The notes beneath the pieces were generated by a model. That model searched no databases, had not been told where the DNA came from, and was given only the letters and a program-made list of their open reading frames with translations. This document shows positions 1-40,510 of a stretch of DNA of 64,000 bases, one piece after another; the stretch's first letter is position 1; each line of letters begins with the position of its first letter. Both the position numbers and the translations under genes were made by a program. Origin of the DNA: Thermoplasmata archaeon (GTDB lineage: Archaea; Thermoplasmatota; Thermoplasmata; Sysuiplasmatales; Sysuiplasmataceae); contig JAKAVR010000001.1 of assembly GCA_021817225.1 (NCBI GenBank), positions 72,002 through 136,001 of the forward strand. The letters are read 5' to 3'.

Positions 1-89
1 CTGCAGAGAAGAGAAGGCAGGATAAGGACAGCAGCCATGTGCAGGGGGACATGAACCAGTCTTTTCAATACGCCTGTCAGATTGGCGAC

Positions 90-2216
90 TCACGTCCCAC
101 TGTCCGCTGTCTTGAACCCTTTTTCAACTGCCTTGTCGTAAGCAACCATGGCCTGCTTTGCCTGCTTTGCAGTCGGCTCTCTTCCTCTTTGAAGTAACTT
201 GCCTACCGAGTAGAGAATACCTCTTTGCCAGCTTTCCAGATTACCAGTGACTCTCGCCCAACTGGACATTTCAAGCCAGACATTCGCCGGTATAGCTTTT
301 GTTTTATCGATCACGGCGGTGTCGTTATGATCGCCAGCGTAATTGTCCTTTGTGCCGTCAGTATGCCCAGATGCCTGGACTCCTATGGGCACCAATTCCA
401 ATCTCAGCTCTGGTGTCAAGTCTATGTCCAGATCGGCTAGAGAAGTCCAGCACTTTTCCCTTTTGCACCACTCGGTTATATTCTGGCCGTCGGGAGGATT
501 TGTTATGTGAGTGTGGACTCGATGGCTAAGAACCCGGATTTCATTAACAAGGGCAGGCGTAATACCTTGGTTTTCCCATATCTTCTGCAGATTGATACGC
601 TGGCCCGAAATATGCGAAATCAGAGCCAACACATATGTAACTACATTTGCCCGGTATCCGCCAAATCTCTCCGCGCTCACTATTTTCTCCGCCTGTTTGA
701 ACATTATGGCCTTGGCCACTAGGTTTTCAAAATACTGCTGATCTACACTGAGATCATGCCACTCACGCAAAGCTATTGAGAATTCAGCAAAATTCTTCTG
801 AGCTCCTCTACTCACAATGTGTGGAAGTTGATTCCACGTATTCTCGAATTTCGCCAGATCCGTCTTAGTGAAAACCTGATTTCGGGGGTGCATCACTTCA
901 AACACCCTTTCCTTTGTGGGGGTTCCTGACCTGACCTTTTCATCTAGATACTGTCCCCTTGCTCTTTCATAAAACCAGCGAGTGAGCTCTTTTCCTCCAG
1001 ACGGATCAGGTGCCCAGACAGTACGGGATAAAGACTCAACTTCCCGATGGAAGGGATCATTGGCGGCGAAATCTGCCAGATTGACTTTGTTCTGTGTGTT
1101 CGCATATCTGCTTATCAATGGAACAATCCTCTCGATATCATCAGTCTTGTTCACAACTGTCAATTTCATCTGAACTTGGATTTTAGACAGCTCTGCGCTG
1201 TCCCTACGCTTTGCGTGAAACAGCGATGCTGTCGTCTGACCTCCGTTTACAATCTGGAAGTCGGTCACTTTGAAAATTGCGAATCCGTCGTTGCCCTGTG
1301 ATCTCACATCTATACCGCTGGCGGTAACCGAGATTCCATTGTTGTATGTAAGGAACATGTCCGGTTCCTCAAGGATGCTGTTGCGAATGCCTTGGTTGAC
1401 TTTACCACGCGCCTGAAGGAAAGATCTCACATTCTTTTCCAGAATACGCGTTCCCCACTTTTCATATATTCTTCCCAATGTCTCACCAGGCACGATGGAA
1501 AGATAAGTACTGCAAAGACCAGTCTGATCCTGGGCCTTGAGACATCTCACAGGTCCTCCAAGCTGTTCAAAATCGATGACAATTTCCTCACGCTTCATCC
1601 CAGACGTTGCGCATCTGTATATGCGGTCGAGATCCCATAATTGATAACTGATTACAACATTTCCGTAATGTTCCTCGGAAATGGGCTCTCCGGGTGCGAC
1701 GCCATCAGTCAGTATGAAAATCCGGACACTGTCCAAATCGTCCTTCAACTCGAACAACGTTTGTGCGAGATCGAAGGCTTGGCTGGCCTCTTCGATGCGG
1801 CGATGGAGTCCTGAAAAACTGGCAATCAGGAAATTCTTCGCCTGTTTAGCAGCCTGTGCTACTTCCGTTCTTGACACTTTGGCAGGGGGGACATCATGTT
1901 TAAGATGGGTGACAAGGAGGTCAAGCATCCTATTGTCTTCGCTGATACTGTAGGCGTTAATTTTCATATCTTTCTTCTGATAGAAACAGACAAAAGTATC
2001 ATTCAGTTCACCAAATTCCTGCAGGTATTCGGCTATATTTTGGGTGAAGACGTCTTCTGTTTGGACGCCCTCAGGATCGGATTCCGTTTCTGAAGCCACC
2101 TTCAAGCGTAGTTCTTCAGCAAATGCGACAAACGGATCCTCGGTGATGATCATAGTTGTAAACCGCCTAATATCGGAAGTAAGCTTGTTTCCAAGTCCAC
2201 TTGGAATCTCAGACAA
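90..2216 (-). CDS. AIPR family abortive-infection protein
   Basis: 708 aa with the conserved 'NGGQTT' motif typical of AIPR. Last gene of the dcm-vsr-HATPase-Z1-PDEXK-AIPR arrangement and overlaps the upstream gene by 67 nt. Confidence 0.55.
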   Translation of the reverse strand: MSEIPSGLGNKLTSDIRRFTTMIITEDPFVAFAEELRLKVASETESDPEGVQTEDVFTQNIAEYLQEFGELNDTFVCFYQKKDMKINAYSISEDNRMLDLLVTHLKHDVPPAKVSRTEVAQAAKQAKNFLIASFSGLHRRIEEASQAFDLAQTLFELKDDLDSVRIFILTDGVAPGEPISEEHYGNVVISYQLWDLDRIYRCATSGMKREEIVIDFEQLGGPVRCLKAQDQTGLCSTYLSIVPGETLGRIYEKWGTRILEKNVRSFLQARGKVNQGIRNSILEEPDMFLTYNNGISVTASGIDVRSQGNDGFAIFKVTDFQIVNGGQTTASLFHAKRRDSAELSKIQVQMKLTVVNKTDDIERIVPLISRYANTQNKVNLADFAANDPFHREVESLSRTVWAPDPSGGKELTRWFYERARGQYLDEKVRSGTPTKERVFEVMHPRNQVFTKTDLAKFENTWNQLPHIVSRGAQKNFAEFSIALREWHDLSVDQQYFENLVAKAIMFKQAEKIVSAERFGGYRANVVTYVLALISHISGQRINLQKIWENQGITPALVNEIRVLSHRVHTHITNPPDGQNITEWCKREKCWTSLADLDIDLTPELRLELVPIGVQASGHTDGTKDNYAGDHNDTAVIDKTKAIPANVWLEMSSWARVTGNLESWQRGILYSVGKLLQRGREPTAKQAKQAMVAYDKAVEKGFKTADSGT

Positions 2217-3157
2217 GCAGACAGAGATATCTTGTAGTTGACTTCTGAAACTCCTTCCGGAACTTCGACGACCGAAGGGAATCCCTTCTCAACTCTGAAG
2301 AGAAACTCCTCCACCGCTTCATATTGAGCGGTGTATTCGGCAGCGTGAATGTCTAAATATCCTGCTTCCATCAGCTTCTGACGGAATAAATCAAATCCTG
2401 CCTGTTCAGTTTCAAATTCGGCCCGAAGCTCAGAAACTAACTCAGGAAGCGTCATTCCACCAGAACCCTTGGTCGCAACAGACAAGACGTACAAGTGAAG
2501 AGAAGGAATCCCCGCCGTATCGAGTTGGTGCTCGCTTGATATCCTAAAGGCGCGTGGTTCCTTTGAGCCAGTAGCTTTGACCTCCACTGAACCCCCGGGG
2601 AGTTCGAAATCATGAACCTTTTCTTCCGGGCCCTTCCAGCACTTCACTGCCGCCAACTTCGGAAGTCTGTGGAGAATGTGATATAGCATAAACCACAACT
2701 CTCCAAACAATCCAAGCTGTTCTTCGTGTGATAGCCCCTCAGGACTGTGAGTCATGAAAAACCGGTGCCATTTCTCAAAACGCTCAGAAAGAACGTATGG
2801 AACGTCCGGTCGCTTGCCTATAGGCGATAGCGTTTTATACAAGTCATTCGCAAACGCCGTGAATACATCTGTGAACCTTTCCGATATCAATGCAATCTTG
2901 ACAAGGATGGCATCTGGACTTTCAACATCTGTGGCAAGTTCAATCCGAATTTCTCTCCAGTTAGGGATGTTTCGTGGCTTAAATTGAATATGTGGTGCAA
3001 GTTCTACAATGAAAAGCCGTTGTCCGTTTATTAAATCGAGACCCAAGAAAAGGCCATCATCGCGTTCGGCGGTCAGCCGACGCCGCAAGATGCCTCCTTT
3101 AGTTCCGGGGGCTTCCGATCGCATCGATGTCCACAATGACTCAAAATCATCGCTCAT
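2150..3157 (-). CDS. PD-(D/E)XK motif nuclease-like protein
   Basis: 335 aa. 'GLFGELW ... HDFELPGGSVEVKATG' fits an E..D..EXK core. 4-nt overlap with the Z1 gene; synteny with Z1/AIPR. Confidence 0.5.
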   Translation of the reverse strand: MSDDFESLWTSMRSEAPGTKGGILRRRLTAERDDGLFLGLDLINGQRLFIVELAPHIQFKPRNIPNWREIRIELATDVESPDAILVKIALISERFTDVFTAFANDLYKTLSPIGKRPDVPYVLSERFEKWHRFFMTHSPEGLSHEEQLGLFGELWFMLYHILHRLPKLAAVKCWKGPEEKVHDFELPGGSVEVKATGSKEPRAFRISSEHQLDTAGIPSLHLYVLSVATKGSGGMTLPELVSELRAEFETEQAGFDLFRQKLMEAGYLDIHAAEYTAQYEAVEEFLFRVEKGFPSVVEVPEGVSEVNYKISLSACLRFQVDLETSLLPILGGLQL

Positions 3158-5982
3158 AGGTATTCGTCTTCGTAAACTTTGTTGACCACATAGTCTATTG
3201 CACGAGCATCGGGATTCGATGGAAAACTGATCGCAAGACCAATCACAGGCTCAGCGTAATGATCCCAACATGAAGCATCCGGGTCGATTGGGTATATTAG
3301 TAAGAGCCCCCTTGTTCTTGGTCTGTGGAGCCGGATGCTGGTCGGGGAGGGTATGTCTGGCTGCTCCTTTGCCACCGGAGCCTTGCCAGCCCCGCCTGCA
3401 GTCGCCTTCCGCCATGCTTCAATCGTGTATTCCAGAGCTGCTCCATATTCCTCCTTTGTCAAGTCTGAAGCTTCATGCTTGGGAGCCACTATTCTTTTCA
3501 AACCAACTTTGTCTTGAAAAATCAAGTCTTGTTCAAGCTTCCTTACAAAGCAGGAGATTGTCAATCCGCCAATAACCGCTTCACGTCCTTTATCACCTGA
3601 TTCGCGGCTAAGAAGTGAGACACACCACTTTGTGAGGTCTCCCTGTTCGACTTGCGACCTAATATATCTTACTAACAATTCAGTCTTTGCCCTTCTTGCA
3701 TCCGGATGCATGACGAAAGCGGACAGAAATCCGATTACGTCGTCCGCTGAGACATCGTCCCATATATGGCCGGGAGAATATGCATAAACGTTGTTGTTAT
3801 CGGCACGAGTCGGTTCTCCGAGGTGGGAGACAAACCGGTCAGTAGTCTGGAAATTGCTCTTTACAACCGATGGGTCTCTGTGAAAAACTAGGGTTTCATT
3901 CATAGTGTTGGAATAAGAAAGCTTCATTCTGGTACCAGAGCGCATCTTATTGATTGAGGTTATCAGAAGGCCACCGGGGTGTTGTCTCACTCTCAGGCCG
4001 AAATCGTTAGGTGTTGCACCGATGCTTTCCATGTGAATGAAGTCACGTCGGAGCTCCTCACTGGCCATAGCGATCCATCTGTACCAGCTGATCAGTTCCG
4101 GCGTTGTGTATATCCTGCAGAGATCGATATAGGTGTCTTTGTAGCCGAACCATCTACCCATCTGCAGCAAGGTGTCATACATACGTGTAGCACGGAGATA
4201 ATAGCTCGTGGTCAGACCTTCCAAAGTCAGACCCCTAGAAAGCTTGTCGCCTCCGATAGCGATGACTGAAACACCCTCGCTAGCATGTCTTCTGTAATCC
4301 AGAATGTCATTTGTGCTGCCGTTTATTGTTCTGATAATTATTTTAGAAGATGCGGTCTCAATTTCAGTCTGAATCTCTTCCCATGTTCTCATCAGTGAAG
4401 GATTCACTTTCGATGTTGTTGGAATGAAATCAGTCTCCCAAAGTTGCTTCAGTTTGTCCGTGATACTGTCCGATGAATCTCCATCTCCGTACCGCACTCT
4501 CCGCTGTATACTTTTCAGCTCCTCCGTGACTAGGTCGTACATCTGATTCTGAACAGACACGTATTTGGAGACGTGAATAAGCATGGAATTGTGCACTCTT
4601 TGTTCACCGCGTGCTGATCTTGCTGCGCAACTGAGTATGAAAGACAATATCGCTTCTTTTAGGGAACCGGGTAACTCCCGTACTGACCATAACTTGTCAT
4701 GACTATCAGGTATCAGAGTTTCGTTATCGATCACAGGGCGAAGTACTGGCATAGATTCTCTCAGTTCAAAGCCTAGTTCGTCGTCTCTGTCTATTCCAAA
4801 TACTTCCAGTGGTCCGATGTAGTTAGAAGGGGTGGGAAGACTTATAATGAAACTCTCAGGGAAAATATCTTCACCAAATCTAGTGTGTGGATTGCTTGGA
4901 TGAATGAATATGCTGGCGAATGGGGTCGCGGTATAGCCAACATATGCGCATTTCTCGAAGGCTTTCAGGAGGTTTCTTATTTCGGCATTGATTTTGGTCA
5001 CATCATAATCGGGGGCATTAAGTTCCAACGGCTTGGTATTTATCGATGCCTGATCGCACTCGTCATCTATAACCAGCAAGGGTACGCCCCGAATTAGTCC
5101 GTCATCTCCAGCAAGAATAGATCTTGCCCAACCGTTCAGGTTTCTAAGGACGGACACGTTCTTTTTTACAACTAGGAGAATGGGATCACCACCTGGCATA
5201 ACACCCACCTGTCTAGCGACTCTCTGATTGAAGTCCCCTTTGTCGTTGCTGCTTGTCAGAGAATGGATTCTCAGGAGACGCTCCCCTGAAAGTCTTCCCA
5301 CACCCATTCTGATATTGCCTTCGTCAAACTTGAGATTCTTGTCAGTATCATATCCCAGAAATTCATCGTCGAGACGGAACTGAGTCTGACTCCTCAGATT
5401 ATTATGGAGACCTGTCAGAACGAATATGAGCTTATATCCAGCATCTACTGCCTTGGAAATGAGGCCAATATAGTTCGAAGTCTTTCCAGATTGAACGCTC
5501 CCCACTACCATTCCACGCCGATCCCATTTCCCTTCACGTTTTGGATCTTCCAGTCTTTTGAGAATAGCTGTAGTCGTACGATCCATTGACCGTAGGACAT
5601 TTGGAGGCCACAACCTGACTTCCTGAAGGAATCGCTCATAGCGTTTCCAGAAATCCCACTTGATCTGAGGGCGATCCTCAGATATCACTGACATAGTGTC
5701 AGACAACCAGTCGATGTGGTCCTCCTTAACATCCAAGACTGAAATCGCACCGACCCATACATTCAGGCTAGTTTCGATGTCGATACAAAGCCTATTCACA
5801 TCACTTTCCTCTGCGTCAACCTCACAAGCCTCGAATGCAGTCTCCACTTTCCTTCGGATGAGATCCCTAGGAGGAGCCTCAACCGTGCTCAAGAGCTGCA
5901 GAGCAACAATTATGGCACGTTGATACTCCTGATCACTTATCATGTCAGTTCCCCAATAACGACTCAAGTTTAGCCAAAACAC
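3154..5982 (-). CDS. Z1 domain P-loop NTPase
   Basis: 942 aa with Walker A 'GSVQSGKTSNYIGL' followed by 'IFVLTGLHNNL'. Conserved partner of HATPase and AIPR in Dcm-linked clusters. Confidence 0.6.
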   Translation of the reverse strand: MFWLNLSRYWGTDMISDQEYQRAIIVALQLLSTVEAPPRDLIRRKVETAFEACEVDAEESDVNRLCIDIETSLNVWVGAISVLDVKEDHIDWLSDTMSVISEDRPQIKWDFWKRYERFLQEVRLWPPNVLRSMDRTTTAILKRLEDPKREGKWDRRGMVVGSVQSGKTSNYIGLISKAVDAGYKLIFVLTGLHNNLRSQTQFRLDDEFLGYDTDKNLKFDEGNIRMGVGRLSGERLLRIHSLTSSNDKGDFNQRVARQVGVMPGGDPILLVVKKNVSVLRNLNGWARSILAGDDGLIRGVPLLVIDDECDQASINTKPLELNAPDYDVTKINAEIRNLLKAFEKCAYVGYTATPFASIFIHPSNPHTRFGEDIFPESFIISLPTPSNYIGPLEVFGIDRDDELGFELRESMPVLRPVIDNETLIPDSHDKLWSVRELPGSLKEAILSFILSCAARSARGEQRVHNSMLIHVSKYVSVQNQMYDLVTEELKSIQRRVRYGDGDSSDSITDKLKQLWETDFIPTTSKVNPSLMRTWEEIQTEIETASSKIIIRTINGSTNDILDYRRHASEGVSVIAIGGDKLSRGLTLEGLTTSYYLRATRMYDTLLQMGRWFGYKDTYIDLCRIYTTPELISWYRWIAMASEELRRDFIHMESIGATPNDFGLRVRQHPGGLLITSINKMRSGTRMKLSYSNTMNETLVFHRDPSVVKSNFQTTDRFVSHLGEPTRADNNNVYAYSPGHIWDDVSADDVIGFLSAFVMHPDARRAKTELLVRYIRSQVEQGDLTKWCVSLLSRESGDKGREAVIGGLTISCFVRKLEQDLIFQDKVGLKRIVAPKHEASDLTKEEYGAALEYTIEAWRKATAGGAGKAPVAKEQPDIPSPTSIRLHRPRTRGLLLIYPIDPDASCWDHYAEPVIGLAISFPSNPDARAIDYVVNKVYEDEYL

Positions 5983-7486
5983 TCGGCATGCGATCGAACG
6001 GCTCTATAGAAGCCACTCGTTCATATGCGTCATTTGCCTCCAATCCCTCTCTAGTAAGAGCGTTGAAAATGTCTATCGCTCTCCGCTCCAGCGCTGCCTT
6101 GAATTCCCAGTCGTCTGAATCCGTAAAACAATCCGGATGCTCTGCATTCTCCATTACAATTGTCTGCAAAGGCACTGTATTCTCAACAAGCTCTATCAGC
6201 TCCCTTACCTTTCTAGCTGAGTATGAAGGCAGGTCCAGCGCATCCCTGACAATCGGATGTGAGCGGTTTATCTTGAAGAATACAGAATTGTGCCTGGACC
6301 TTCGCTCCCAAACGAGTTCGTAATTCAAAGCATGTTTTCGCTTCAGGATCCTTCCTCTGTTCCTGTAAACCTCACTGGCTCGAGCGCGAGTGACTTTTGC
6401 GATCCTAATCATGGGTCCGATCAATGCACCAGGAGGATACGCTACTCCTTTCTTTACGTCCACACGCCATTCATGATCCAATGTATTGGGAATGTCCACC
6501 TGTATTCTTGCCAGTTTGTAGTGCTCTTCTTGTTTGAAACCCAGATCGAGCCAACTTCCGGGAACAATGAGTCTCTCGTTCCGGTAAATGTAGAAACCCT
6601 GTTGTGCATTCCATCCCCGCGGACCAGCAGCAAGTTCGTGAATCGTCTCATCCAGACGGGACTTGTGTGGTAGGACGAAAGGGTGGACATTAAGCGATTT
6701 CCCGAAGATTTCAAGCGCCTCTTTACTGAGCTCTTGTGTTGCATCTTCATTCTTCAGGAAGGGATCCCATGCCTTTACAGCTTTGTTGTTGATATGGATT
6801 CTAAGCCGATCCTTGCCAGAAATGAATCTGTGGAATGTCATCGCAATGTGGCGTTCCACGATTTCCACTTTGGATAGGAATCGGTTCTTGGCATCGCTGC
6901 TGTCAGTTCCACTTTGATCAACTACCCTATCCAATCGTTGCCAAATAACCAATGTTCCATGATCTTCAATATTATTGAGCATTGATAACAACGGTTCTGT
7001 TTCCGATAGGGGGTGTTTCCGTAGCTCCCAATCTTTGAGTTTATCAATTAGGTCAAGATCCCAGGAACGCGTAGTATCGTGACCAGACGCTGTCTTGGAT
7101 CTGACTGTGAGTAATCTGCATTGGGACAGGGATGCCGTTTTGAGCCCGAGACCAAATCTGCCGAGATCGTCTGCGTTTCGTTCTTCAAGGGGGCTCTTAC
7201 TGCCGACCCTCATTGCTTCTGTTAGTTCGTTAGTTGCCATTCCACGGCCATCGTCCAGAATTGTGATGTGAGATTGTGGTCCCGACCAGTGAAAATCTAT
7301 CCAGACATTCTTAGTGCCGGCATAAATGCTATTGTCTACAATGTCTGCGACAGCAGCTTCGAGTGTGTAGCCAAAAGCCCTCAATGCTTCGAACATAGCA
7401 TCTGCTCTTGGGGGAACTTTCTCAAATTCTGACAGATCTATCGTTTCCACCAATTCAACCTCCTCTCGTGCGAGGCTTCTGTCCAT
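5945..7486 (-). CDS. GHKL/HATPase_c-type ATP-binding protein
   Basis: 513 aa with an N-box-like 'DIVDNSIYAG' and 'ILDDGRGM' G1-box near the N-terminus. Overlaps the Z1 gene by 38 nt. Confidence 0.6.
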   Translation of the reverse strand: MDRSLAREEVELVETIDLSEFEKVPPRADAMFEALRAFGYTLEAAVADIVDNSIYAGTKNVWIDFHWSGPQSHITILDDGRGMATNELTEAMRVGSKSPLEERNADDLGRFGLGLKTASLSQCRLLTVRSKTASGHDTTRSWDLDLIDKLKDWELRKHPLSETEPLLSMLNNIEDHGTLVIWQRLDRVVDQSGTDSSDAKNRFLSKVEIVERHIAMTFHRFISGKDRLRIHINNKAVKAWDPFLKNEDATQELSKEALEIFGKSLNVHPFVLPHKSRLDETIHELAAGPRGWNAQQGFYIYRNERLIVPGSWLDLGFKQEEHYKLARIQVDIPNTLDHEWRVDVKKGVAYPPGALIGPMIRIAKVTRARASEVYRNRGRILKRKHALNYELVWERRSRHNSVFFKINRSHPIVRDALDLPSYSARKVRELIELVENTVPLQTIVMENAEHPDCFTDSDDWEFKAALERRAIDIFNALTREGLEANDAYERVASIEPFDRMPSVLAKLESLLGN

Positions 7487-7824
7487 CTTCTACGGATGGA
7501 GGCATAATTGCAGCATCCGGACTTATAAAGATTGGTTGCAGAATCTCCCCTTTATTACTCAAGAAACGGCAAGAGTGCAACTGCCATTAAATTGAATACT
7601 CAGAAATTATATTACGAAGAAGATGATTTGATAGTTCTCCAATTCTCATACAGACTTACTCACTTCGTTCCTTGAAAAGTAATCTGCCATCGGAGCAGAT
7701 GTCCTAGGATGAAATATTACTAACTAAAGATCCTATGCGTGAGAGGAATTCTATATTACCACTGCCGGCTTCCAGCTGCTTATATTGTTGACAGCCGCTG
7801 TCCTGTATTCGGAGTAGAATTGCG

Positions 7825-8607
7825 TCAAGACTGGTTTGCCTTAACAACAGCCGGCGTAACTCTTGGACCTATCAGATTGGCTGATTGGCTTACGGAACCT
7901 TTCTTGGTTGATACTTCGACTCTAAGGACAGAAATCTCTCTTGCCCTGCCATCCAATCTGAAGTACAACTCCTGTACAACTTCTTCATTTGTGTGCAAAT
8001 TGATTTTCTGTTCGTAGCGTCCATTAAGCTCCTCATGGCCATCAATTCTCATTTTCACGTTCAATGGTATGCTAATTGCCAGCTTGATCTCGGTTAACGA
8101 ATTCGTCTTATTTTGAATAAATAAGGTTATAGAATCCTCACTATACTCATTGTATATCTCAAACTCATGAGGAGTTAATTCAAATCGGAGCTTTCTCCAA
8201 TACCTAGAGTTAAGCATGCCCCTCCAAATAGGTATTGATGTGAATGCTGAAATCACCAAAGGGAATAATAGTCGTTCCCAGACAGCATTACTAAGGACAA
8301 ACAGTATCTGTTCAGATATGACAAAGACGCTTGCGACTGAAAACAACATCGTACTAACATCTAGGGCATCTTGCCCATACTTAAGAGTTGAGAATTGATC
8401 AAACGGCAATCTTGTGTAATTTCTGATGGTGGTTAGAAGCACCAGCTGGATTATGCCAAAAGAAAAAAACACTGCATAGGCCGCCAGATAAGCTTTGAAT
8501 CCAGCAGTTATAGCCCCAAAAACCATCACGAATATGGATATGGTCATCTGGAGCTCGAATTTGTAGTCTATCATAGGAATCAGGCCCTTATCGAAGGTAC
8601 TTCCCAA
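7825..8607 (-). CDS. hypothetical membrane protein (N-terminal ~4 TM helices, C-terminal soluble domain)
   Basis: 260 aa. Strongly hydrophobic N-terminal half ('ISIFVMVFGAITAGF', 'AVFFSFGIIQLVLLT', 'MLFSVASVFVISEQILFVL', 'LFPLVISAFTSIPIW') and a charged C-terminal half. AT-rich codon usage unlike its neighbours. 20-nt overlap with the upstream ORF. Confidence 0.45.
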   Translation of the reverse strand: MGSTFDKGLIPMIDYKFELQMTISIFVMVFGAITAGFKAYLAAYAVFFSFGIIQLVLLTTIRNYTRLPFDQFSTLKYGQDALDVSTMLFSVASVFVISEQILFVLSNAVWERLLFPLVISAFTSIPIWRGMLNSRYWRKLRFELTPHEFEIYNEYSEDSITLFIQNKTNSLTEIKLAISIPLNVKMRIDGHEELNGRYEQKINLHTNEEVVQELYFRLDGRAREISVLRVEVSTKKGSVSQSANLIGPRVTPAVVKANQS

Positions 8608-9595
8608 GCGTGTCGAGAAAGATTTTGCTAAGAATATCTATAACGTCACTCTTTATGGAGGGATCGCCTATACCGCTTCCCAACTCATTGATGTAAACCT
8701 CTGCAACGTATTGCCCGCTGATCAGTAAAACAAACCCTACTCTGAAAGCAAATCGAACGTCCTTGTAGATGAGACGACCTCCGATGTTCAGTATTTTGCC
8801 TCCGTGAACATCAATTTCCTCTCTCACATCCGGGTGGTTGAAAATATCCTCCCTACCTCTAAATGATTTCTCTTTTATCTTACCAGTGGGATAATAAAAT
8901 TTCATCGTGTTTATTTCTATAGAGCGCCCAAGACCTCCTGTGTTATGTGCACCACACCTGTTCGCCATTTCGCGAATGATGTGGCTGAATTTGTCTTCAA
9001 GAACCTTACTGTTTGCACTCAGAATTGTTGGTGAAGCATGCATTATACCCAAGTCTTTCATTGCGGAAAGAACGCTACAAGCCGCTGAAGAACTGCCCAT
9101 GAGTTGTGTCAATTTATCGTGAGTGCCAAATCGTAATCCGACATGCACATCTCTCTTCACGACCTGAAGATTGAAATTCGCATCCAAATCCGTGTTGGTG
9201 GACAAATACCAATATGTGGTCAATAATGCACCATCGGAGACGTGAGTCTCTTTTGTGTCAAATCCGTTCTCCTCCACGTGTTGGTCCTTGTCATCCAGTT
9301 TGAAGGGGTTTTTGTTAACTATTGAGTTTATAGCTCCCACTGTCTGTGGCTTCTCAAGGGCACACCACACAAGATTTACTGGCTCTAGCTCGTCGTTGAG
9401 ATATTCGTATGTCCTGACAAAGAGATTGACATCGTCTGGAGTAGAGCGACTAATCAATGATGCGATAATTTCCTGTCTGCTATTCAAACGGACACCCTCT
9501 AGCTTTCCCCGCCCCAACCTGAGTAACAATCTCAATGGAAGTGCTTTCAATAAATTGGTAAGTTGCTCTTCACTGAGGTCTTCATCCACGGTCAT
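8588..9595 (-). CDS. hypothetical protein (no recognisable motif)
   Basis: 335 aa in a clean ORF, translationally coupled to the membrane protein, in an AT-rich segment. No signature I can assign. Confidence 0.45.
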   Translation of the reverse strand: MTVDEDLSEEQLTNLLKALPLRLLLRLGRGKLEGVRLNSRQEIIASLISRSTPDDVNLFVRTYEYLNDELEPVNLVWCALEKPQTVGAINSIVNKNPFKLDDKDQHVEENGFDTKETHVSDGALLTTYWYLSTNTDLDANFNLQVVKRDVHVGLRFGTHDKLTQLMGSSSAACSVLSAMKDLGIMHASPTILSANSKVLEDKFSHIIREMANRCGAHNTGGLGRSIEINTMKFYYPTGKIKEKSFRGREDIFNHPDVREEIDVHGGKILNIGGRLIYKDVRFAFRVGFVLLISGQYVAEVYINELGSGIGDPSIKSDVIDILSKIFLDTLGKYLR

Positions 9596-10215
9596 TCACC
9601 TCACTAAGATCATTCTTTCCATTTAATCTATGGAATTCAGAATTGGAATCGTCCAAATGTTCATCCAAAACCTTTGTCAAAGATGCAAAACTTACTGAGA
9701 ACGACCACCTAATCATGCTACTGGCAGAGATTTCTAAATTCTCGCAAGATCACATTGCGAATCGAATGTCTATTCCCTTGGGCAATAAAATGCCAATAGA
9801 CGATAACCGTCTGCCTTTCCACCAAGCAAAGTAAGACAGTATGACCATTTAAAACTAATTCTTCGTCTCTGTTCCCAGACAAGTTCAATTCATTAGTGAC
9901 TTGTGTTTCAGATTCTTGCAAGCGATAGAATGGCAAAAGGTAAGTGAATTCCGCAGAGGTTCAATGTGGCATGTGGCCTAATTAACGCAAATGACATTAC
10001 AATTGCAAAGACATCACTTAAACCGCTTATTCCCCTTCTCATACCGGATTTCGCGAACAAGTAGACTGAAATGGCTTAGAAAGTCACGCACAGTCTAGCA
10101 TTGCTTTCACTCTTTGATATGAATTTGAACCGTCATCAAGATGGATTTCCTCTAAAGAAAAGCAACAATTAAGTTGAACACTCACTCAGAAGTCAAATGC
10201 AAAAGCGTGGCATCA

Positions 10216-10647
10216 TCAGATATTTCTTATGCCATGATTAGATGCTGGACCTATGACTTTCACAACTCTTGCTAACTCCCTCTCAAACTGCTCTTTGATT
10301 TCGCATTCCCACAAAGTGACCACCCTCCATCCCATTGCTTTTAACTGCCCATTTACTCTCTTGTCCCTATTCTTGTTGTTCCCAAGTTTCTCAGCCCAGA
10401 AATCATGCCTTGTGGTAGGAATAGTCGATAACTTGCAACCATGCGAGTGCCAAAAGCAGCCGTTAATGAATAATGCCACCCTTTTCTTAGGGAAGACAAT
10501 GTCTGGGTGGCCAGGCAACGAAGAACGTAATCTGTACCTGAAGCCTAATGCATGCAGAGCCTTTCTCACTTCCAATTCCAACGATGTGTTACTGGACCTT
10601 ATTCTTGACATATTCCAGCTTCGACGCTCTTTGCTTATCTTGTCCAC
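10216..10647 (-). CDS. vsr: very-short-patch repair endonuclease
   Basis: 143 aa with 'DIVFPKKRVALFINGCFWHSHGC' matching the Vsr core, immediately downstream of the C5-methyltransferase. Confidence 0.8.
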   Translation of the reverse strand: MDKISKERRSWNMSRIRSSNTSLELEVRKALHALGFRYRLRSSLPGHPDIVFPKKRVALFINGCFWHSHGCKLSTIPTTRHDFWAEKLGNNKNRDKRVNGQLKAMGWRVVTLWECEIKEQFERELARVVKVIGPASNHGIRNI

Positions 10648-10805
10648 GGCTTCAGTCTCCCCATTTTTCTATAAACTGCTATGAGATGAGCGGGTCAATA
10701 TAATTTCTGGATTAATTGTGGCCTTTACCGGATTTGAGTAGTGTCCTGGGGGCAGCGGTAGTTCAAATTAACCGAAACCAAGTGGGCAGGCAAAGACATG
10801 TGCCA

Positions 10806-12413
10806 CTAGGCATCCGCGATTCTCGATATTGGTTTTTGGTGATTTTCGGGGTCTTGACTACACGCTTTCGAAAGTATTCCGTACACAATCCCGGCTATCT
10901 GGTACGCGAGATAAGGCGGAACTGCATTTCCTATCTGTATGTACTGCTCCGTTCTGCTACCTTCGAAGTAATAATTATCTGGAAATGTCTGTATGCGAGC
11001 TGCCTCTCTGACTGTAAGGCTCCGACATTGCCTTGGATCGGGATGAATGTAGTAGTGGCCATCTTTGCTTATGTGAGACATTATTGTAGTCGCTGGTCTT
11101 GTACTCACTTGCACCCGGAACCTGTCAGTAAAACTGTTCTTGACTTTAGCTGACTTCTTCGCACTTTTATGTTTTGGTTTCAATTCCTTCGGAAAATCTC
11201 TCAGAGTTGGGCTTTTCTTGTTCACCTTGGCGTAACAGGCTGCATAAAAGTACCTGTAGAGATCCCTACGCATGTGAGATCGCGCAGTGTGATTGCACAC
11301 ACCTTGCATCCGGAGATCGCAATACCATTTATTGAGGTAGGCCGTAGGATATTGACCCTTAATGAAGTCACATCCGGTTCCTGCAGCGGGCGGCCGTATC
11401 ATTCTCAACTGGTTTACCATGTAATCCCTCAATTTGTTCCCACATGGTCTCTGGATTATTGACCCCATCCAAGAGCGATCTTCTTGATTCCTCAACAATT
11501 TCAGCCATTTTGCATCAGAATCCGCGCTCTGTGAATACATACTTCTCAACTTTGGTAATCCTCCAATAACCTTTGATATTGGAATTTCATCCTGTAAGGC
11601 TAGACCCCCCGGATTCTGGACATTCAGATCATTCCTTATTCCCAGCAGAATGACTCTGTGTCTCGATTGGGGGATACCGTGCAATTCGGATTTCACCACC
11701 GCAGTGTAGGGAGAATTGTCGTCAATTAGTCCCTCGCTGGTCAATGAGTATATGGAATATGTATGATGATAGCTTTCAAGCGTATCACGTCCCTCTCTTT
11801 CAAGTGCTTCAGCAGGATTGCGCAGATCGCCAAGCATTCTGCCGAATATTCCCTGTTCCTTGAAAGTTGCCGAGAGCAATCCCTTTACATTTTCCATAAT
11901 GAAAACAGCAGGTTTGTGATCTGACAATATCTGAAGGTATTCCACGTACAGTTTCTGTCTGACATCTTTTTCAGGATCATATTTGGGGTTGCCAGCGTTC
12001 CTAGATCTACCTGCGAGAGAATACGCCTGACAAGGTGGTCCGCCGATCAAAACACTATTGTCTGTCCGCTGCAATCGGTCGTTGATTTTACTGCGTATGT
12101 CCATTATCGTTTTTCGGTCGGCTCCTATTGAGGCTTTCAAGCTCCTTTCAGCTGCGGCTTTGGCTGCGACTGGATAAGATGCATAGAGGGCATCAATCCC
12201 GATTTCTCTACGTAAGTATTGATAATATTCTTCAGGTATATGGGGCCAAGAAAGGTGAAAAAACGATCTCAGCTTGAGAGTTCTGAAAGCATAATCTTCC
12301 TTCTCTATCGATAATACAATTTCAAATTTCCTATCTCCCTGTGCATCAGCAAACGACGAAAATCCCTCGCCGAGCCCGCCGGGGCCAGCAAAAAGGTCGA
12401 CAACTTTGAACAT
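10806..12413 (-). CDS. dcm: DNA (cytosine-5)-methyltransferase
   Basis: 535 aa. Motif I 'VVDLFAGPGGLGEGF', motif IV 'GGPPCQAYSLAGR', motif VI 'ENVKGL', motif X 'QIGNAVPPYLAYQI'. Confidence 0.85.
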   Translation of the reverse strand: MFKVVDLFAGPGGLGEGFSSFADAQGDRKFEIVLSIEKEDYAFRTLKLRSFFHLSWPHIPEEYYQYLRREIGIDALYASYPVAAKAAAERSLKASIGADRKTIMDIRSKINDRLQRTDNSVLIGGPPCQAYSLAGRSRNAGNPKYDPEKDVRQKLYVEYLQILSDHKPAVFIMENVKGLLSATFKEQGIFGRMLGDLRNPAEALEREGRDTLESYHHTYSIYSLTSEGLIDDNSPYTAVVKSELHGIPQSRHRVILLGIRNDLNVQNPGGLALQDEIPISKVIGGLPKLRSMYSQSADSDAKWLKLLRNQEDRSWMGSIIQRPCGNKLRDYMVNQLRMIRPPAAGTGCDFIKGQYPTAYLNKWYCDLRMQGVCNHTARSHMRRDLYRYFYAACYAKVNKKSPTLRDFPKELKPKHKSAKKSAKVKNSFTDRFRVQVSTRPATTIMSHISKDGHYYIHPDPRQCRSLTVREAARIQTFPDNYYFEGSRTEQYIQIGNAVPPYLAYQIAGIVYGILSKACSQDPENHQKPISRIADA

Positions 12414-12580
12414 TGCTCATGCAACCCAAACGCTGGAGCCTCTTGGCTTCATTCGGCGTTCGTACGCAAGCATAGGTAACATGCCACATTTTGGAATCCA
12501 GTCAACAAATAGGCTTGTCTGGTACTTGAGGGCTATATGATTAACGTGCAATGGCACTGATGCCGGATCAAGCAGAATGC

Positions 12581-12880
12581 TCACCCCATAAGGACTTCGT
12601 CCATCTTTTTCAGCAATTCGGCAACCTTCTTACCTTTTTGCGTCAGGTTCAACATGTTTCTTGGAGGGTACGAAGAGGTATCTCGCCGGACTGTAATCAC
12701 ACCCAATTCCTTTGCCTTTTCAACAGATGCATATAACGGGTTGGGATATAGATGATACTCGTCGATAAGTTTCTGGAAGTTTATCTCTCCTGCGTGGTTT
12801 AGAATCACCAGGAGCCGAAGCAGACTTGACTGGCGTTCAAAAGGTTTCAGGTTTTCTCCTAGCATAGGCATTGTTTCCAT
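12581..12880 (-). CDS. small winged-helix DNA-binding protein (element-borne regulator)
   Basis: 99 aa with HTH-like 'NFQKLIDEYHLYPNPLYASVEKAKELGVITV'. Sits between dcm and the integrase. Confidence 0.35.
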   Translation of the reverse strand: METMPMLGENLKPFERQSSLLRLLVILNHAGEINFQKLIDEYHLYPNPLYASVEKAKELGVITVRRDTSSYPPRNMLNLTQKGKKVAELLKKMDEVLMG

Positions 12881-13173
12881 AAGTAATTAGTATTTAATTA
12901 CCCTTGCTTACTTATCGGATATGTTAGTGATAAGTATTTATAGAGAATGGATATTACTTATAGTAGTGATAAGTACGGCAAGAAGCCAGATACGGAATTG
13001 GCTCCTCATTCTTGAAGACGAATATCAGCTAGACGTTTCATCATACCCTGAGAGAATAGAGCTCAAGAAATCGATAAATCAAATTCGTCTGAGAGAACTG
13101 TGCCAGACCCTCAGAATTTACGGGTACCTCTACACGGATCCACTGAAGGCCTTTCTGAAGGGGGAGTCTGCTC

Positions 13174-13428
13174 GTGAAGTTTGATCGAACGCTTCAGAGG
13201 AGTTGCAGGGGATGTGGCTTCTATTACCTTTCACCGGCTGAGAAATGGTGTTGTTCATGGTTGAGTGATTTCACGGTCACAGCCATGATTACTGATGGAG
13301 GTAACGCTGTATACTATCTGGGACTGGATGATGACAGACCCTGGTTGAAGTTGAAAGACCTCAAATTCTGTCCTTTTTGCGGAGATCGATTCGAACTTTC
13401 ATCCAACAGGGTAGAAATTGAGAGGTGA
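13174..13428 (+). CDS. small Zn-ribbon protein
   Basis: 84 aa with 'CRGCGFYY' and 'CPFCGDRF' CxxC pairs. 4-nt overlap with the integrase start. Confidence 0.35.
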   Translation: MKFDRTLQRSCRGCGFYYLSPAEKWCCSWLSDFTVTAMITDGGNAVYYLGLDDDRPWLKLKDLKFCPFCGDRFELSSNRVEIER

Positions 13429-14429
13429 ACAAAATGGACACGCCGAATGATCATGCGCAGTTCAGGCAAAAACTCAATGAATTCCGATTGTGGGCTTCAG
13501 GGTGCGGCCGATTCTCATTCTCGACAGTTGCCCGCCAGGTGAGACGCCTTCAATATATATCAAAACATATGGACCTCCTAGAATTCAATCTGTCTGATAT
13601 TTACACCTACATTGAAGCAGAACTCAAGAAAGGAAAGAAGAAGAAGTCTGTAAACAACGACATGAAGGATGTCCAGGCATGGCTCGATTTCCTTGGCAAG
13701 CATATAGACCTTCCACGGTTCAAGGGAGAACCAGCTCCAGAACCCTGGATGCCCACGGATGACCAGCTCTCACAGATAATCCGTTACTGCCGGAAGAATT
13801 CAAACAAGGGCTTGGCAAAACGCAACGAACTGATGTTTGAAATACTTGCATTCGGGGGTCTGCGTATTGGCGAGATGCTTGGGCTGAATATCGAGGATGT
13901 TACTCAAAGAGGCATCTATGTACGTTCAGAGAAAGGTGAACGGGATCGGACCGTAGGCCTTCCGGATGGCCTAATCATCTCCCTCGAGGAATACATTCAT
14001 GCATACCGCTACAACACGGATCCCAAAGCCCTGTTTACAAGCAGTCGCGGGAGAATAGAATACAATTACACAAGGAACCTGATCAAGAGAATTGGCATCG
14101 CGCTGGGTATGCCTCTTCTTCACGCACATGCACTAAGACATTATTGTGCCACAAGCCTGTTGAAAGGCTTCTTTGGCTCTGAACCGCTCGACATCAGGGA
14201 GGTTCAAATCCATCTGGGACATGCCCGCATCGAGACGACAGCAATTTATACTCATATTTCGCAAAAGGAGGTGGCGGAGCATGTGCGACTCCGCTACAAT
14301 TCCTTCTTTCCAGACAGTCACGGGCAAGGAGAAACGGAAATCGTAATTGCAGAAGAGGTGACAGGTTCGTATCCCAGTGAATCCGAACCAGAACTATGTG
14401 CGGCTGCCGGGATTCGAACCCGAGTTTGA
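13425..14429 (+). CDS. int: tyrosine recombinase / integrase
   Basis: 334 aa with catalytic-region motifs 'ARHYCATSLL', 'HLGHARIETTAIYTHIS' (R..HxxR..Y). The last ~31 nt overlap the 3' half of tRNA-Gly. Confidence 0.85.
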   Translation: MNKMDTPNDHAQFRQKLNEFRLWASGCGRFSFSTVARQVRRLQYISKHMDLLEFNLSDIYTYIEAELKKGKKKKSVNNDMKDVQAWLDFLGKHIDLPRFKGEPAPEPWMPTDDQLSQIIRYCRKNSNKGLAKRNELMFEILAFGGLRIGEMLGLNIEDVTQRGIYVRSEKGERDRTVGLPDGLIISLEEYIHAYRYNTDPKALFTSSRGRIEYNYTRNLIKRIGIALGMPLLHAHALRHYCATSLLKGFFGSEPLDIREVQIHLGHARIETTAIYTHISQKEVAEHVRLRYNSFFPDSHGQGETEIVIAEEVTGSYPSESEPELCAAAGIRTRV

Positions 14430-14469
14430 AGCTTGGGAAGCTTCAGTCCTACCACTAGACTACAGCCGC
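14399..14469 (-). tRNA. tRNA-Gly(CCC)
   Basis: The minus-strand read GCGGCTGTAGTCTAGTGGTAGGACTGAAGCTTCCCAAGCTTCAAACTCGGGTTCGAATCCCGGCAGCCGCA folds as a canonical cloverleaf. 7-bp acceptor, D-arm GTCT/GGAC, anticodon loop TTCCCAA, T-loop TTCGAAT. Confidence 0.85.
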
Positions 14470-15042
14470 TTGACTTCCCATGGGGGTCAGGCACTGTTAG
14501 GCGCTGAACCAAAAGATGTGAAACGTAGCTCTCTATTTAAATCCAGTCAGCATGAACGCTTCGCTGAATTGATGAAACAATACTGCCCATCAGCCGCCAA
14601 GAAGTCGCTCATATTCGCGAGGCTTGTAATCTTCACAATCTGGCGCTTTGCGTGCCTGTAGCACATTTGTGTAACGGTACGCGGGATGATGGCCAGAGTC
14701 ATATTGATAGGGCCCGCATCGAGACAGGGGAAATCCCTCGTGGTACTTTGGCCTGACTCATTGTTGCCATGGGAGCTTTGGTCAGAATCGGCAGTGCGAC
14801 AGCCGATATTAAGCGGATGTGAGTCATGTGTGAAATTCAGTGGCTCGTTATAGGAACATTGATGCCCGGGGCACTGTAGCAGCGCACCGGGAGACTCGTA
14901 TACAGTGCAGCTCAACTCGTTACCTCGATGCTTCGGACACATGCCAGGAGGCTTTATGAAAAAAGCGCATACATCGAAACAGGAGAGTGATTGATAATGG
15001 ACATGCAGGCTGCGTACTCCGGCACACAGCCTTAAATGCCGT

Positions 15043-37493: not shown

Positions 37494-38048
37494 TCAGTGG
37501 AGCAGGCCAGCTCCCTGCAGCTCTTCCATGATCTTCTGCACCGCATCGCCGACATCGGATGGTTTCCGCGCACCTGTGCAGACAAGCTTGCCGCTGCCGA
37601 AGAGAAGGACCACGACCTTCGGCGAATCAAGCCTGTAGACAAGACCGGGGAACTGTTCAGGTTCGTACTCGACCTTCTCGAGACCGAGACTGATGGCAAT
37701 TGCATTGAGGTTTATTTCCTGCCCGAGATCGGATGAAGCGACAATGTTCTGCACCTCGATCTTGGGTTCTATCTTGATTTCAATGCCTGCCCTTCCAATC
37801 TGCTTTGAAACCTTGCTGATTGCGAGCTTGACTTCCTCAAGGCTCTTGGCACCGGTGCAGACGACTTTTCCACTCCTGAAAAGAAGAGTCGCCGTCTTCG
37901 GCTCCTTCAGTCTGTAAATCAAACCGGGGAACTGCTCAGGCTCATATTCCGCACCGTCGAGTGCAAGGGCAATAGCCTGCAGATCAAGTTGTTCGCCAAG
38001 AGATGTCGATGCGACCACATTCTCTATCTTAATTGTTGGCATTTTCAT
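37494..38048 (-). CDS. tbp: TATA-box binding protein
   Basis: 184 aa with two direct repeats ('IENVVASTSLGEQLDLQAIA...FPGLIYRL' / 'VQNIVASSDLGQEINLNAIA...FPGLVYRL'). Confidence 0.9.
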   Translation of the reverse strand: MKMPTIKIENVVASTSLGEQLDLQAIALALDGAEYEPEQFPGLIYRLKEPKTATLLFRSGKVVCTGAKSLEEVKLAISKVSKQIGRAGIEIKIEPKIEVQNIVASSDLGQEINLNAIAISLGLEKVEYEPEQFPGLVYRLDSPKVVVLLFGSGKLVCTGARKPSDVGDAVQKIMEELQGAGLLH

Positions 38049-39515: not shown

Positions 39516-40510
39516 TTGTAGATATCCCTCTTCATGTCGCACTTCCAGATAAGCTGCGCCGACTGTGGCTGTTTCCCCAAAGAGTGCAGGAAAAGCGCTT
39601 CAACTGAAACTTGTCCCAACTGCAGGCTTGCCGTCTGCTGTTGCTGGCCCGTTACCTGAATCATTCCGGTTAACCTTTTGGTGCAAGGCTCATAAGGCCC
39701 TCAACAGGATAGCACACCGCCACACATGGCGGCGGTGCCGAATGGTGTGCCCGGCATGAATGGAGGTCAGAAGGTGAAAGTCCTTTACGGGGTTGCAGCA
39801 GCGACCGTTAGCCGAACGACAAGGGTGTCAGCCGCGAGGCTGAATCCGAAGGAAGTCGCAGGCAAAGTCCCGGCCCGACGAACAGAAACCGTATATGAGG
39901 CGGAGAACAGACAGGGTGAGTTCGCCATCCAGAACAAAACACAATCGCCGCAAGTGTCTGTTTGCGTATATGCGGCGGGTATATGGGATGAAGGCATCCG
40001 TTCTTACCCGGGGAGATCTGGCATCATGCGGCAGCATGTGAAACGGACCGGAGTTTCGTCCGTACAAGCATGTTGCGGTAAACAGTGCAGCAATGCACTG
40101 CCGAGATGCCAGAAGTCAGCAGAAGCCATAGTACATGCGGGAGCATGGAAGGGCAGAAGGTCAGTAATGGAGTGACAACGTTGAGTTCGAGTTCAGGGCA
40201 GAGAAGACAGAAAACCTCGAATGAGGGCCGCCATGCGGGAGGAACGGTGAAACCGCTCGAACTGCATGGGGCGTCCAGTCCTGAGACGGCACGAGACGCA
40301 GTGTCAACCAGAGCAGACAGCATCTGCTTCAAAACTGACTAACCGCTGTATGCCGGACGGTACGTACAGTGGTGTGGGAGGTCGGGAGTTAATCACTCCC
40401 TCCTGCCCGATATATTCGGCCAATAACATCTGTTTTCAACAGACCGACCTGTTACTCTGCATTTCCACTTCCGGGCAATAATATATATCGGCGCAACGAT
40501 CCGAATTGAT

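Follow-up and report, generated by a model that had tools for sequence, protein, structure and literature searches.

How far does mobile DNA extend when an archaeal integrase gene ends inside a tRNA gene, and what, if anything, does the overlap of the two genes mean? These questions are raised by a 64,000-nt stretch of DNA (hereafter, the window) from a Thermoplasmata archaeon of the family Sysuiplasmataceae (GenBank assembly GCA_021817225.1, contig JAKAVR010000001.1, forward-strand positions 72,002 to 136,001), in which the open reading frame (ORF) of a tyrosine integrase enters a minus-strand tRNA-Gly(CCC) gene. The initial annotation took positions 1-14469 for one integrated element whose left end might lie outside the window. 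Considered together with the DNA upstream, the region is very probably the tRNA-proximal end of a 27.4-kb island, composed of head-to-tail units that are bounded by attachment (att) sites and lodged in the 3' end of tRNA-Gly(CCC). The presumed single element appears to be the newest unit of this tandem array, with six further att sites lying beyond it.

The overlap itself involves two features:

14398-14469, minus strand: tRNA-Gly(CCC), the integration target, regenerated intact (ARAGORN; the sole tRNA in the window)
13434-14429, plus strand: Xer-like tyrosine integrase, 331 aa; catalytic domain ending at about residue 292, tail at residues 296-331

The integrase ORF can be read from a GTG start (13425-14429, plus strand, 334 aa), and the gene call on public contigs begins at the ATG at 13434 (331 aa); its product matches PF00589 (E=1e-27). 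Rfam places the tRNA at 14399-14469 (68.3 bits). The two genes share 32 nt of the tRNA 3' part (14398-14429), with the TGA stop of the integrase lying within the tRNA gene. The last 11 codons and the stop of the integrated form are supplied by the tRNA gene, and the protein ends in ...CAAAGIRTRV* at 331 aa. First inspection had suggested an element integrated at the tRNA-Gly 3' end, its integrase frame entering the minus-strand tRNA, and this stands, as does the view that all window DNA left of the tRNA is cargo with host genes beginning directly to the right. The G+C content is 41-49% over positions 1-14000 versus about 50-57% rightward (means of 45.9% for the island and 52.7% for the host part), and the genes called right of the tRNA encode UPF0147, an AsnC-type regulator, the tRNA-splicing endonuclease (endA), TFB (tfb) and Gar1. 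A second copy of the tRNA 3' half is absent from the window (up to three mismatches; seed-12 repeat search), where none was expected by chance.

The left boundary was found in metagenomic sequence. Exact-protein look-ups located the window sequence on a 110,772-bp metagenome contig of the European Nucleotide Archive (ENA), with two mismatches in 13,157 nt. As had been anticipated, attL lies upstream of position 1 (such coordinates are negative here): the 19-nt core TATGTGCGGCTGCCGGGAT, at 14395-14413 in the window, recurs as an exact direct repeat at -3697 to -3679 (site B; L001, L009 and L130). The contig search for a second copy of the tRNA 3' segment was thereby answered, with 18,092 bp between the two core copies and a unit, C1, of 18.09 kb between them. 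The repeat had been expected to span some 30-45 nt, but the identical core measures only 16-19 nt. The parts of the right-hand junction are as follows:

1-14394, no strand: in-window part of unit C1, tRNA-proximal and integrase-bearing; the unit starts at -3678
14363-14394, plus strand: left arm of attR, inside the int 3' end, AGGTTCGTATCC...GAATCCGAACCAGAAC; homologous to the native tRNA trailer in alignments of att sites and native flanks
14395-14413, plus strand: att core TATGTGCGGCTGCCGGGAT, tRNA positions 59-73 plus four trailer nt

The junctions share one layout, in which a tRNA-trailer-like arm is followed by the core (the last 16-19 nt of the tRNA) and then by a conserved right arm, ATACGCATTAAGGTTCGAATCC. 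The crossover must fall within the att core or adjoin it, and its region is limited on the right by a host-specific single-nucleotide polymorphism (SNP) at 14454. The 14-nt sequence GTGCGGCTGCCGGG is perfect in four of the six upstream sites, and the 9-mer GGTTCGAAT, which occurs nowhere on the plus strand of the 64-kb window, is upstream confined to att sites. The locus combines the features by which Islander recognizes genomic islands of tDNA-targeting tyrosine integrases (PMC4383910), namely a catalytically complete tyrosine integrase, variable content at a conserved site, and an intact tRNA accompanied by a displaced, tRNA-derived fragment in the same orientation at -3697 to -3679, with five more copies out to -12,953. 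Excision of C1 via site B would extend the predicted integrase to 430 aa through a 104-codon read-through tail. The predicted attP junction is GAATCCGAACCAGAACTATGTGCGGCTGCCGGGATATACGCATTAAGG, the attP of C1 being written ...GAATCCGAACCAGAACTATGTGCGGCTGCCGGGATATACGCATTAAGGTTCGAATCCAATCAGGG, and the predicted empty attB junction is GAATGAACCGGGTGCGGCTGCCGGGATTCGAACCCGAG, the empty attB being written GGATGCCCAGTTGAATGAACCGGGTGCGGCTGCCGGGATTCGAACCCGAGTTTGAAGC. A single-cassette circle of the Fic unit (C2, below) is predicted to carry the trailer-like arm, the core and its own right arm, ATACGCATCAAGGTTCGAATCCTCGG.

Other interpretations of the sites were considered and dropped. Folding of the att sites in the manner of attC was rejected, with z-scores of -0.7 to -1.4 for the DNA folding of four att sequences and arm motifs that are direct repeats; no Rfam family matches the sites. 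The status of the AGGTTCGAAT motifs as arm-binding sites of the integrase was downgraded, the left arms being homologous to the native tRNA trailer; the integrase itself seems to lack a separate arm-binding domain because it apparently has two domains only, residues 109-291 being catalytic. The right-arm pattern GATATRYRCATYAAGGTTCRAAT gave no matches in scans of JGI metagenomes and IMG/VR.

Site B is not the end of the island. A profile built from the repeats detects six att sites upstream, all intergenic and all in a single orientation (nhmmer E=6.5e-28 to 9.5e-09, and E=1e-17 to 2.6e-07 for the sites outside model-building), and the head-to-tail array, of which C1 is the tRNA-proximal member, covers 27,367 bp at window coordinates of about -12,953 to 14,413. 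From the far end to the tRNA, the sites are:

-12,975 to -12,910: terminal att site, perfect core
-11,940 to -11,860: att site s5, perfect core
-8,602 to -8,505: att site A, perfect core
-6,004 to -5,922: att site s3, degenerate core
-5,036 to -4,947: att site s2, degenerate core
-3,738 to -3,638: att site B, perfect core
14,363-14,413: attR, reference core

They bound the following units, listed in the same direction:

C6 (most distal): MazE-PIN
C5: a 307-aa gene, a 71-aa gene and an insertion sequence (IS)
C4: MazE-PIN interrupted by an IS
C3: MazE-PIN, 0.9 kb
C2: Fic, 1.2 kb
C1 (tRNA-proximal): 18.09 kb, carries the integrase

Units C2-C6 are about 0.9-3.3 kb long, lack an integrase and keep both att halves, and no integrase remnants were found by tblastn at the internal junctions of this array. 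Site A (-8.56 kb) was rejected as the end of the island, since L130 holds two further sites and then host flank. Three IS copies lie in the island, two of the DDE_Tnp_1 type (L130 12526-13866 and 14754-16190) and one of the IS630 type (L009 13241-14337); the two DDE_Tnp_1 copies have a host-like G+C content (about 53%), and one of them splits a MazE-PIN operon.

Comparison with related Sysuiplasmataceae, which had been suggested as a means of telling an insertion from core genome, returned different genes at this position and thereby set the core genome aside. The endonuclease beside the tRNA places the host in the Thermoplasmata, family Ca. Sysuiplasmataceae: it matches that of the metagenome-assembled genome (MAG) YF1.bin95 at 97%, that of a Sysuiplasmataceae MAG at 84% and that of Ca. 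Sysuiplasma superficiale at 65%. Among the six most closely related loci, tRNA-Gly(CCC) adjoins UPF0147 in all but L015, a sequence too short to extend that far. The synteny tRNA-Gly/UPF0147/endA is retained, and the contents beyond the tRNA vary:

L010 and L013: integrase 3' end
L012: a single VapBC-type cassette
L011 and L014: glyoxalase-like cassette
L014, further out: MazE-PIN cassette; the junction in front of it keeps about 30 nt of an integrase 3' end

The integrase gene is missing at this site in L011, L012 and L014. An "empty" unit of about 100 nt stands between the glyoxalase-like cassette and the tRNA in L011 (1855-2022), as if a cassette had been lost, in the order degenerate core, trailer-like arm, core and tRNA.

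The opposite end of the island is informative as well. Its far flank, an 880/902-aa gene followed by major facilitator superfamily (MFS), NUDIX and haem-synthesis genes, is 97.55% identical (L130 18925-20924) to that of L132 (MAG GCA_027314305.1) and 93.7% identical to that of L133 and the other contigs of its type (L133-L137, five further samples), and in L132 and L133 it meets different cassettes at the att core. In L132 the flank directly joins the Fic cassette and C3-C6 (7.96 kb) are absent; the switch in similarity lies inside an att site, and the presence or absence of C3-C6 therefore has att-site precision. The array of the L133-L137 type, found with the far flank in these five samples, reads from the flank as VapB cassette, cassette X, Fic and MazE80-PIN132, whereas in the window strain MazE80-PIN132 precedes Fic, i.e., the order is reversed. 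Cassette X has three different left neighbours (in L014, L005 and L133); in the first two of these, its homology sets in precisely at the core. The cassettes are 85-92% identical, versus 94-97.5% for the flank. Taken as a whole, these alignments require the insertion or excision of single integrase-less units at att sites, because the erosion of old elements cannot reorder units.

The array has also been found beside a second host. A 26-kb contig from another sample carries it with 0 mismatches in 15,896 nt and one or two in 11-21 kb, up to the tRNA (99.98% identity between the two contigs as far as the tRNA, falling to 74-82% past it), and has a right flank that is 72-82% identical to every other flank. 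The tRNA SNP at 14454 follows the host flank, and identity right of the element ends after only about 40 nt, at this host-specific SNP. The comparison indicates that a stretch of at least 24 kb has probably passed between species recently, its right-hand junction falling within the tRNA. The same contig terminates inside another IS copy. The spacer between the tRNA and UPF0147 (14470-15042), which holds a doubtful 131-aa Cys-rich ORF (14547-14942, minus strand), is unconserved: it is 359 bp shorter in the second-host contig, and the spacers of related loci cannot be aligned.

As for the meaning of the overlap, it is more than a matter of chance, since it recurs in relatives at five tRNA species. 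Loci in which the ORF enters a tRNA gene in antisense number at least 14, which makes this a trait of the family:

tRNA-Gly(CCC): the window, L005, L010 and L013
tRNA-Arg(CCT): L090, L091, L092, L095 and L103
tRNA-Ile(GAT): L097
tRNA-Pro(TGG): L119
intron-containing tRNA-Trp(CCA): L099, L106, L115, L117 and L120

About two-thirds of the family end in translations of the T-arm, such as GIRT, GFEP, GDLNP or GI-stop. The tRNA-Trp(CCA) cases come from JGI metagenomes of the hot-spring type, and ARAGORN detects these tRNAs in intron mode only. In L091 (1-11075), a 47%-identical integrase reads over nearly all of tRNA-Arg(CCT), and the cargo is a different defence set, comprising an OLD/TOPRIM ATPase and a UvrD helicase (Gabija-like), a PD-(D/E)XK protein and an N6/N4 methyltransferase.

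The integrase was at first likened to those of the pT26-2 type, and this likeness does not hold. PF16795 (Phage_integr_3) is absent, a Pfam scan at E<=0.01 yields PF00589 only, and the Xer-like protein, which matches Pyrococcus abyssi XerA (PDB 4a8e) at E=1e-18, stays catalytically whole upon integration, with only its tail crossing the site. Residues R144, K167, R235, H263 and Y272 are invariant, and H232 nearly so, in a 33-member family alignment; for the pattern scan the narrower alignment A2 was used, alignment A1 being too diverse. The AlphaFold2 model has a mean predicted local distance difference test (pLDDT) score of 84.4, with a last helix (277-291) ending at residue 291 and a pLDDT below 50 over residues 296-331, which are thus predicted to be disordered. 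Residues from about 321 on are encoded by the core or the tRNA, and the catalytic residues and last helix are retained on integration. As the segment that crosses the site belongs to a tail that is disordered and not conserved, it would be dispensable, and the overlap most likely results from int and att being tightly linked instead of constituting a functional domain.

Relatives of the integrase are few. At E<=1e-30, 18 representatives were found among 1.84 billion, with about 22 close relatives at 90% clustering; none occurs in IMG/VR, and in phage and plasmid records the integrase matches Xer-like proteins only, at up to 33% identity, with no close relative in a described virus or plasmid. 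A variant that is 94% identical (L005) shares only the int module with the window (13019-14467, equivalent to L005 9586-11034; 1.45 kb at 92%), its other cargo being unrelated. Integrases of 39-42% identity lie in the middle of plasmid- or virus-like contigs (L006 and L008), without a tRNA and among small co-oriented ORFs, with an MCM helicase, ParB-like proteins and a PolB-thumb protein among their neighbours. In L006, the relative stands in an attP-like configuration, the att core being followed by non-tRNA sequence, and this contig may be an episomal form.

How would such an array arise? In the explanation favoured here, the Xer-like integrase would recombine the att site of a circular unit with the 3' end of the tRNA, and integration would regenerate the tRNA and displace earlier units away from it, such that C1 would be the newest unit and C2-C6 older ones. 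Integrase-less units that retain both att halves could then be excised, re-inserted and co-transferred by the same enzyme, in a manner likened to cis-mobilizable elements or integron cassettes. Such excision or transfer is supported indirectly, by the near-identical array of at least 24 kb that adjoins two different right flanks and by the att-precise indel. That the tRNA-Gly locus functions as a cassette-exchange platform, working like an integron or a composite staphylococcal cassette chromosome (SCC) but with different parts, is put forward tentatively, as a possibility rather than a probability. Several observations weigh against this explanation. With degenerate cores at s2 and s3 and IS elements inserted in C4 and C5, part of the array may consist of fixed relics. 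The att sites of Y-type cassettes are 68-84% conserved versus 80-90% for adjacent coding sequence, and so give no sign of extra constraint. The 104-codon read-through tail of excised C1 is untidy for an element that excises routinely, and no circular or empty-site junction was seen in the comparative evidence, which comes from metagenomic contigs and MAGs only. None of 20 relatives at other tRNAs has att repeats within 10 kb, and to date the cassette array is therefore known from the tRNA-Gly locus only. Beyond the Fic cassette of L132 lies tRNA-Ala instead of tRNA-Gly, a join taken up below. Finally, the two-host inference depends on a single MEGAHIT short-read contig with its junction in a conserved tRNA, although even a chimeric join would presuppose that 100 nt or more of the integrase 3' end is shared by the second species.

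Some of these observations would suit a simpler history, in which C1 is a single ordinary 18-kb element and the upstream units are decayed, immobile remains of integrase-bearing elements, kept because toxin-antitoxin pairs resist deletion. The degenerate cores, the IS insertions and the unexceptional conservation of the att sites agree with it, loss of an integrase does happen, as the remnant of about 30 nt at the internal junction of L014 illustrates, and both post-integration loss of int and tandem integration are known in archaea (PMC8371274). It is nevertheless unlikely, given that the internal sites have no integrase fragments beside them, that the compact units of about 0.9-1.2 kb each comprise one operon and both att halves, that four of the six upstream cores are perfect, that strains with 94-97.5% identity in their flanks differ by a swap of cassette order and by an indel with its ends precisely at att sites, and that one cassette has different neighbours, the join lying precisely at the core for L014 and L005; erosion alone would be unable to reorder units. 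Much less probable still is that the array and its two host backgrounds are artefacts of metagenome assembly, i.e., chimeric joins where att or tRNA sequences are repeated. The contigs were assembled with MEGAHIT (k141) and frequently break at the tRNA or in IS copies, an 85-nt inverted artefact stands at the end of L133, and the L132 array is joined to an unrelated tRNA-Ala region. The att repeats, however, are about 60-100 nt long with identical cores of 16-19 nt, below k=141, only about 40 nt right of the element are identical before the host-specific tRNA SNP, and the same arrangement occurs in the window and four contigs from at least two samples, with the L133-type array in the five further samples. 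A last alternative, in which a Xer-type recombinase resident in the chromosome, or else an integron integrase, lies in what is simply core genome, is hardly credible. The top family matches are indeed XerA, XerD and XerC, followed by integron-integrase models, but the protein scores 123.7 bits against the archaeal XerA model NF040815 versus an equivalog cut-off of 220, and 66.4 bits versus 265 and 47.3 versus 435 against the integron-integrase models TIGR02249 and NF011946. Moreover, the gene is absent at the site in the three loci named above, its 94%-identical variant adjoins unrelated cargo, the G+C content is 7 points below that of the host, and the att sites lack attC-like hairpins.

The L132 join deserves description in its own right. 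On the tRNA-proximal side, its Fic cassette is followed by a 197-aa gene, then a VapB-PIN pair and tRNA-Ala(GGC) (L132 8073-9867), past which lie purF, L37e and LSM. The window contains none of these genes, and no att site was found at the join between the Fic cassette and the 197-aa gene. A chromosomal rearrangement, a second anchor tRNA and a chimeric MAG contig are all possible explanations.

The cargo of C1 in the window consists of the following genes:

90-2153, minus strand: MzaE-like AIPR protein, 687 aa as called (ORF to 2216); PF10592 E=3e-101, PF22879; PADLOC MzaE E=1.2e-100
2150-3157, minus strand: MzaD-like DUF4420 protein, putative PD-(D/E)XK nuclease; PF14390 E=1.5e-64; PADLOC MzaD E=5.2e-27
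3154-5943, minus strand: MzaC-like Z1-domain protein, 929 aa as called (ORF to 5982); PF10593 E=2.5e-81; PADLOC MzaC E=5.4e-194
5945-7486, minus strand: MzaB-like GHKL (HATPase_c_3) ATPase; PF13589 E=2.6e-32; PADLOC MzaB E=1.5e-106
7825-9595, minus strand: two uncharacterised genes (ORFs), one of about 249-260 aa, probably a membrane protein, and one of about 333-335 aa
10216-10647, minus strand: Vsr very-short-patch mismatch endonuclease; PF03852 E=2.9e-28; PADLOC Vsr E=6.5e-30
10806-12413, minus strand: C-5 cytosine DNA methyltransferase (Dcm); PF00145 E=2.3e-48; PADLOC methyltransferase models up to E=6.6e-93
12581-12880, minus strand: small winged-helix protein, divergent from the integrase operon; PF13601 E=2e-4, under the curated cut-off
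12921-13428, plus strand: two small ORFs, one of 87 aa and one of 84 aa with CxxC...CxxC

With MzaB-E and Dcm in one cluster, the cargo is predicted to be an Mza-type, restriction-like defence system, in which Dcm would be the methylation partner. The two genes at 7825-9595, situated between mzaB and vsr in the stretch of lowest G+C in the window (41-42%), have no Pfam, PADLOC or NCBIfam matches and may be extra defence genes or accessory genes of the Mza cluster. The winged-helix protein is a possible regulator or recombination accessory factor, and a comparable small ORF lies upstream of the related integrase in L091. No family match was found for the 87-aa and 84-aa ORFs; the latter overlaps the GTG of the integrase (13425) by 4 nt and stops 5 nt before the ATG at 13434, and is therefore likely co-transcribed with int. 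The portion of C1 outside the window contains a 408-aa gene of unknown function, an IS630-type insertion and a weak Mrr-like gene, and no replication, conjugation or virion genes were found in the unit. In the host part of the window, group II intron domains occur at 39828-40154 (plus strand; Rfam D1-D4-3 at 137.7 bits and D1-D4-1 at 63.4 bits), and the longest direct repeat of the window, 101 nt at 37570-37670 and 37849-37949 (70% identical), was dismissed as the internal two-fold repeat of the TBP gene (37494-38048, minus strand).

Several known systems resemble parts of this island. The "suicidal" (type I) archaeal integrases of SSV and of pTN3 and pT26-2 of the Thermococcales carry PF16795 and have their gene split into two inactive pseudogenes on integration (PMC8371274). 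The present module is likewise archaeal, compact and tRNA-targeting, with att inside the int ORF, but its integrase is of the Xer-like kind, with PF00589 as its sole domain match, and is not split, all catalytic residues being preserved. For an ORF that runs across attP and changes its C-terminus, the nearest precedent would, by analogy of arrangement, be that of the bacterial phage Mx8, in which, as far as the account of Tojo et al. (1996) in PMC4383910 goes, the int ORF spans attP and integration at a tRNA locus swaps the C-terminus (IntP/IntX) while the catalytic domain stays. Here too, the ORF crosses the att core and the integrated and excised forms differ in C-terminus; the swapped tail, however, is short, non-conserved and predicted to be disordered, and an IntX-like regulatory role is therefore not indicated; the predicted disorder speaks weakly against any effect of the changed C-terminus on integrase activity. 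The SNJ2-type haloarchaeal integrases (PMC5861418) are also non-suicidal and tRNA-targeting, and SNJ2 int is co-transcribed with small overlapping ORFs, one of them winged-helix, but the SNJ2 att core lies downstream of int instead of inside the ORF, and no sequence relationship of the present integrase to the SNJ2 type was found.

Precedents also exist for the array. Composite staphylococcal SCC islands with ccr-less pseudo-SCC units are one analogue. Tandem islands comprising units with and without an integration module are known from the ssrA genomic islands of Dehalococcoides (PMC3146451) and from the accretion of integrative and conjugative or mobilizable elements (ICE/IME) with cis-mobilizable elements (CIME) in streptococci (PMC5704250). 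As in the present case, such units stand in tandem downstream of one small-RNA gene with 3'-end repeats of about 20 nt and T-loop insertion, and composite transfer has been proposed; those islands are bacterial and multi-kb in size, and the Dehalococcoides enzyme is a serine recombinase; the present array differs in its archaeal host, its tyrosine recombinase and its integrase-less units, most of which are single-operon cassettes of about 1 kb in an order that varies between strains. Tycheposons of Prochlorococcus (bioRxiv 10.1101/2020.12.28.424599) are, in the excerpted part of that preprint, tyrosine-recombinase cargo elements at tRNA genes, usually with replication modules, in which successive integrations likewise push older elements inward and leave partial tRNAs and degenerate remnants; no replication module was seen here, and the same excerpt describes neither compact integrase-less cassettes nor their reordering. 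Integrons have been reported in archaeal MAGs (PMC9668308), and they include chromosomal arrays rich in toxin-antitoxin cassettes. They share with this locus small recombinase-less cassettes bounded by recombination sites, many of them toxin-antitoxin pairs, in strain-variable order and content; the locus differs from them in having no IntI-type integrase, tRNA-derived double-stranded repeats instead of attC hairpins, an integrase inside the newest unit, and cassettes that are whole operons in either orientation. The cargo, in turn, has all of MzaB-E in the canonical order of the PADLOC Mza system, together with a cytosine methyltransferase, but the latter matches general type II and DrmMII models, with no MzaA model among its best 25 matches, and vsr and the two genes of unknown function are interposed.

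Two things are new at this locus: a previously uncharacterised family of Xer-like integrases, the genes of which end within the tRNAs they target, and, at one archaeal tRNA, a compact array in which integrase-less cassettes have been reshuffled. Archaeal integrases have been sorted as "suicidal," with att inside the gene, or "classical," with att outside, and the family described here falls in between: its ORF crosses att and exchanges a disposable tail only, at five or more tRNA species, including the intron-containing tRNA-Trp. The island provides a sequence-defined archaeal case of growth by the stacking of att-bounded units, with small cassettes that vary between near-identical strains, and it makes chromosomal gene capture in archaea directly testable, since it specifies the enzyme and its att substrates as well as the junctions to be expected. 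A bacterial-type Mza defence system, as predicted, travels on such an element in Thermoplasmata of acid mine drainage. If the cassette-exchange reading is true, a Xer-derived integrase on the newest unit would capture, excise and reshuffle integrase-less, single-operon cassettes carrying toxin-antitoxin, Fic and defence functions, and whole arrays would also move between species, thereby constituting an archaeal cassette system independent of IntI and attC.

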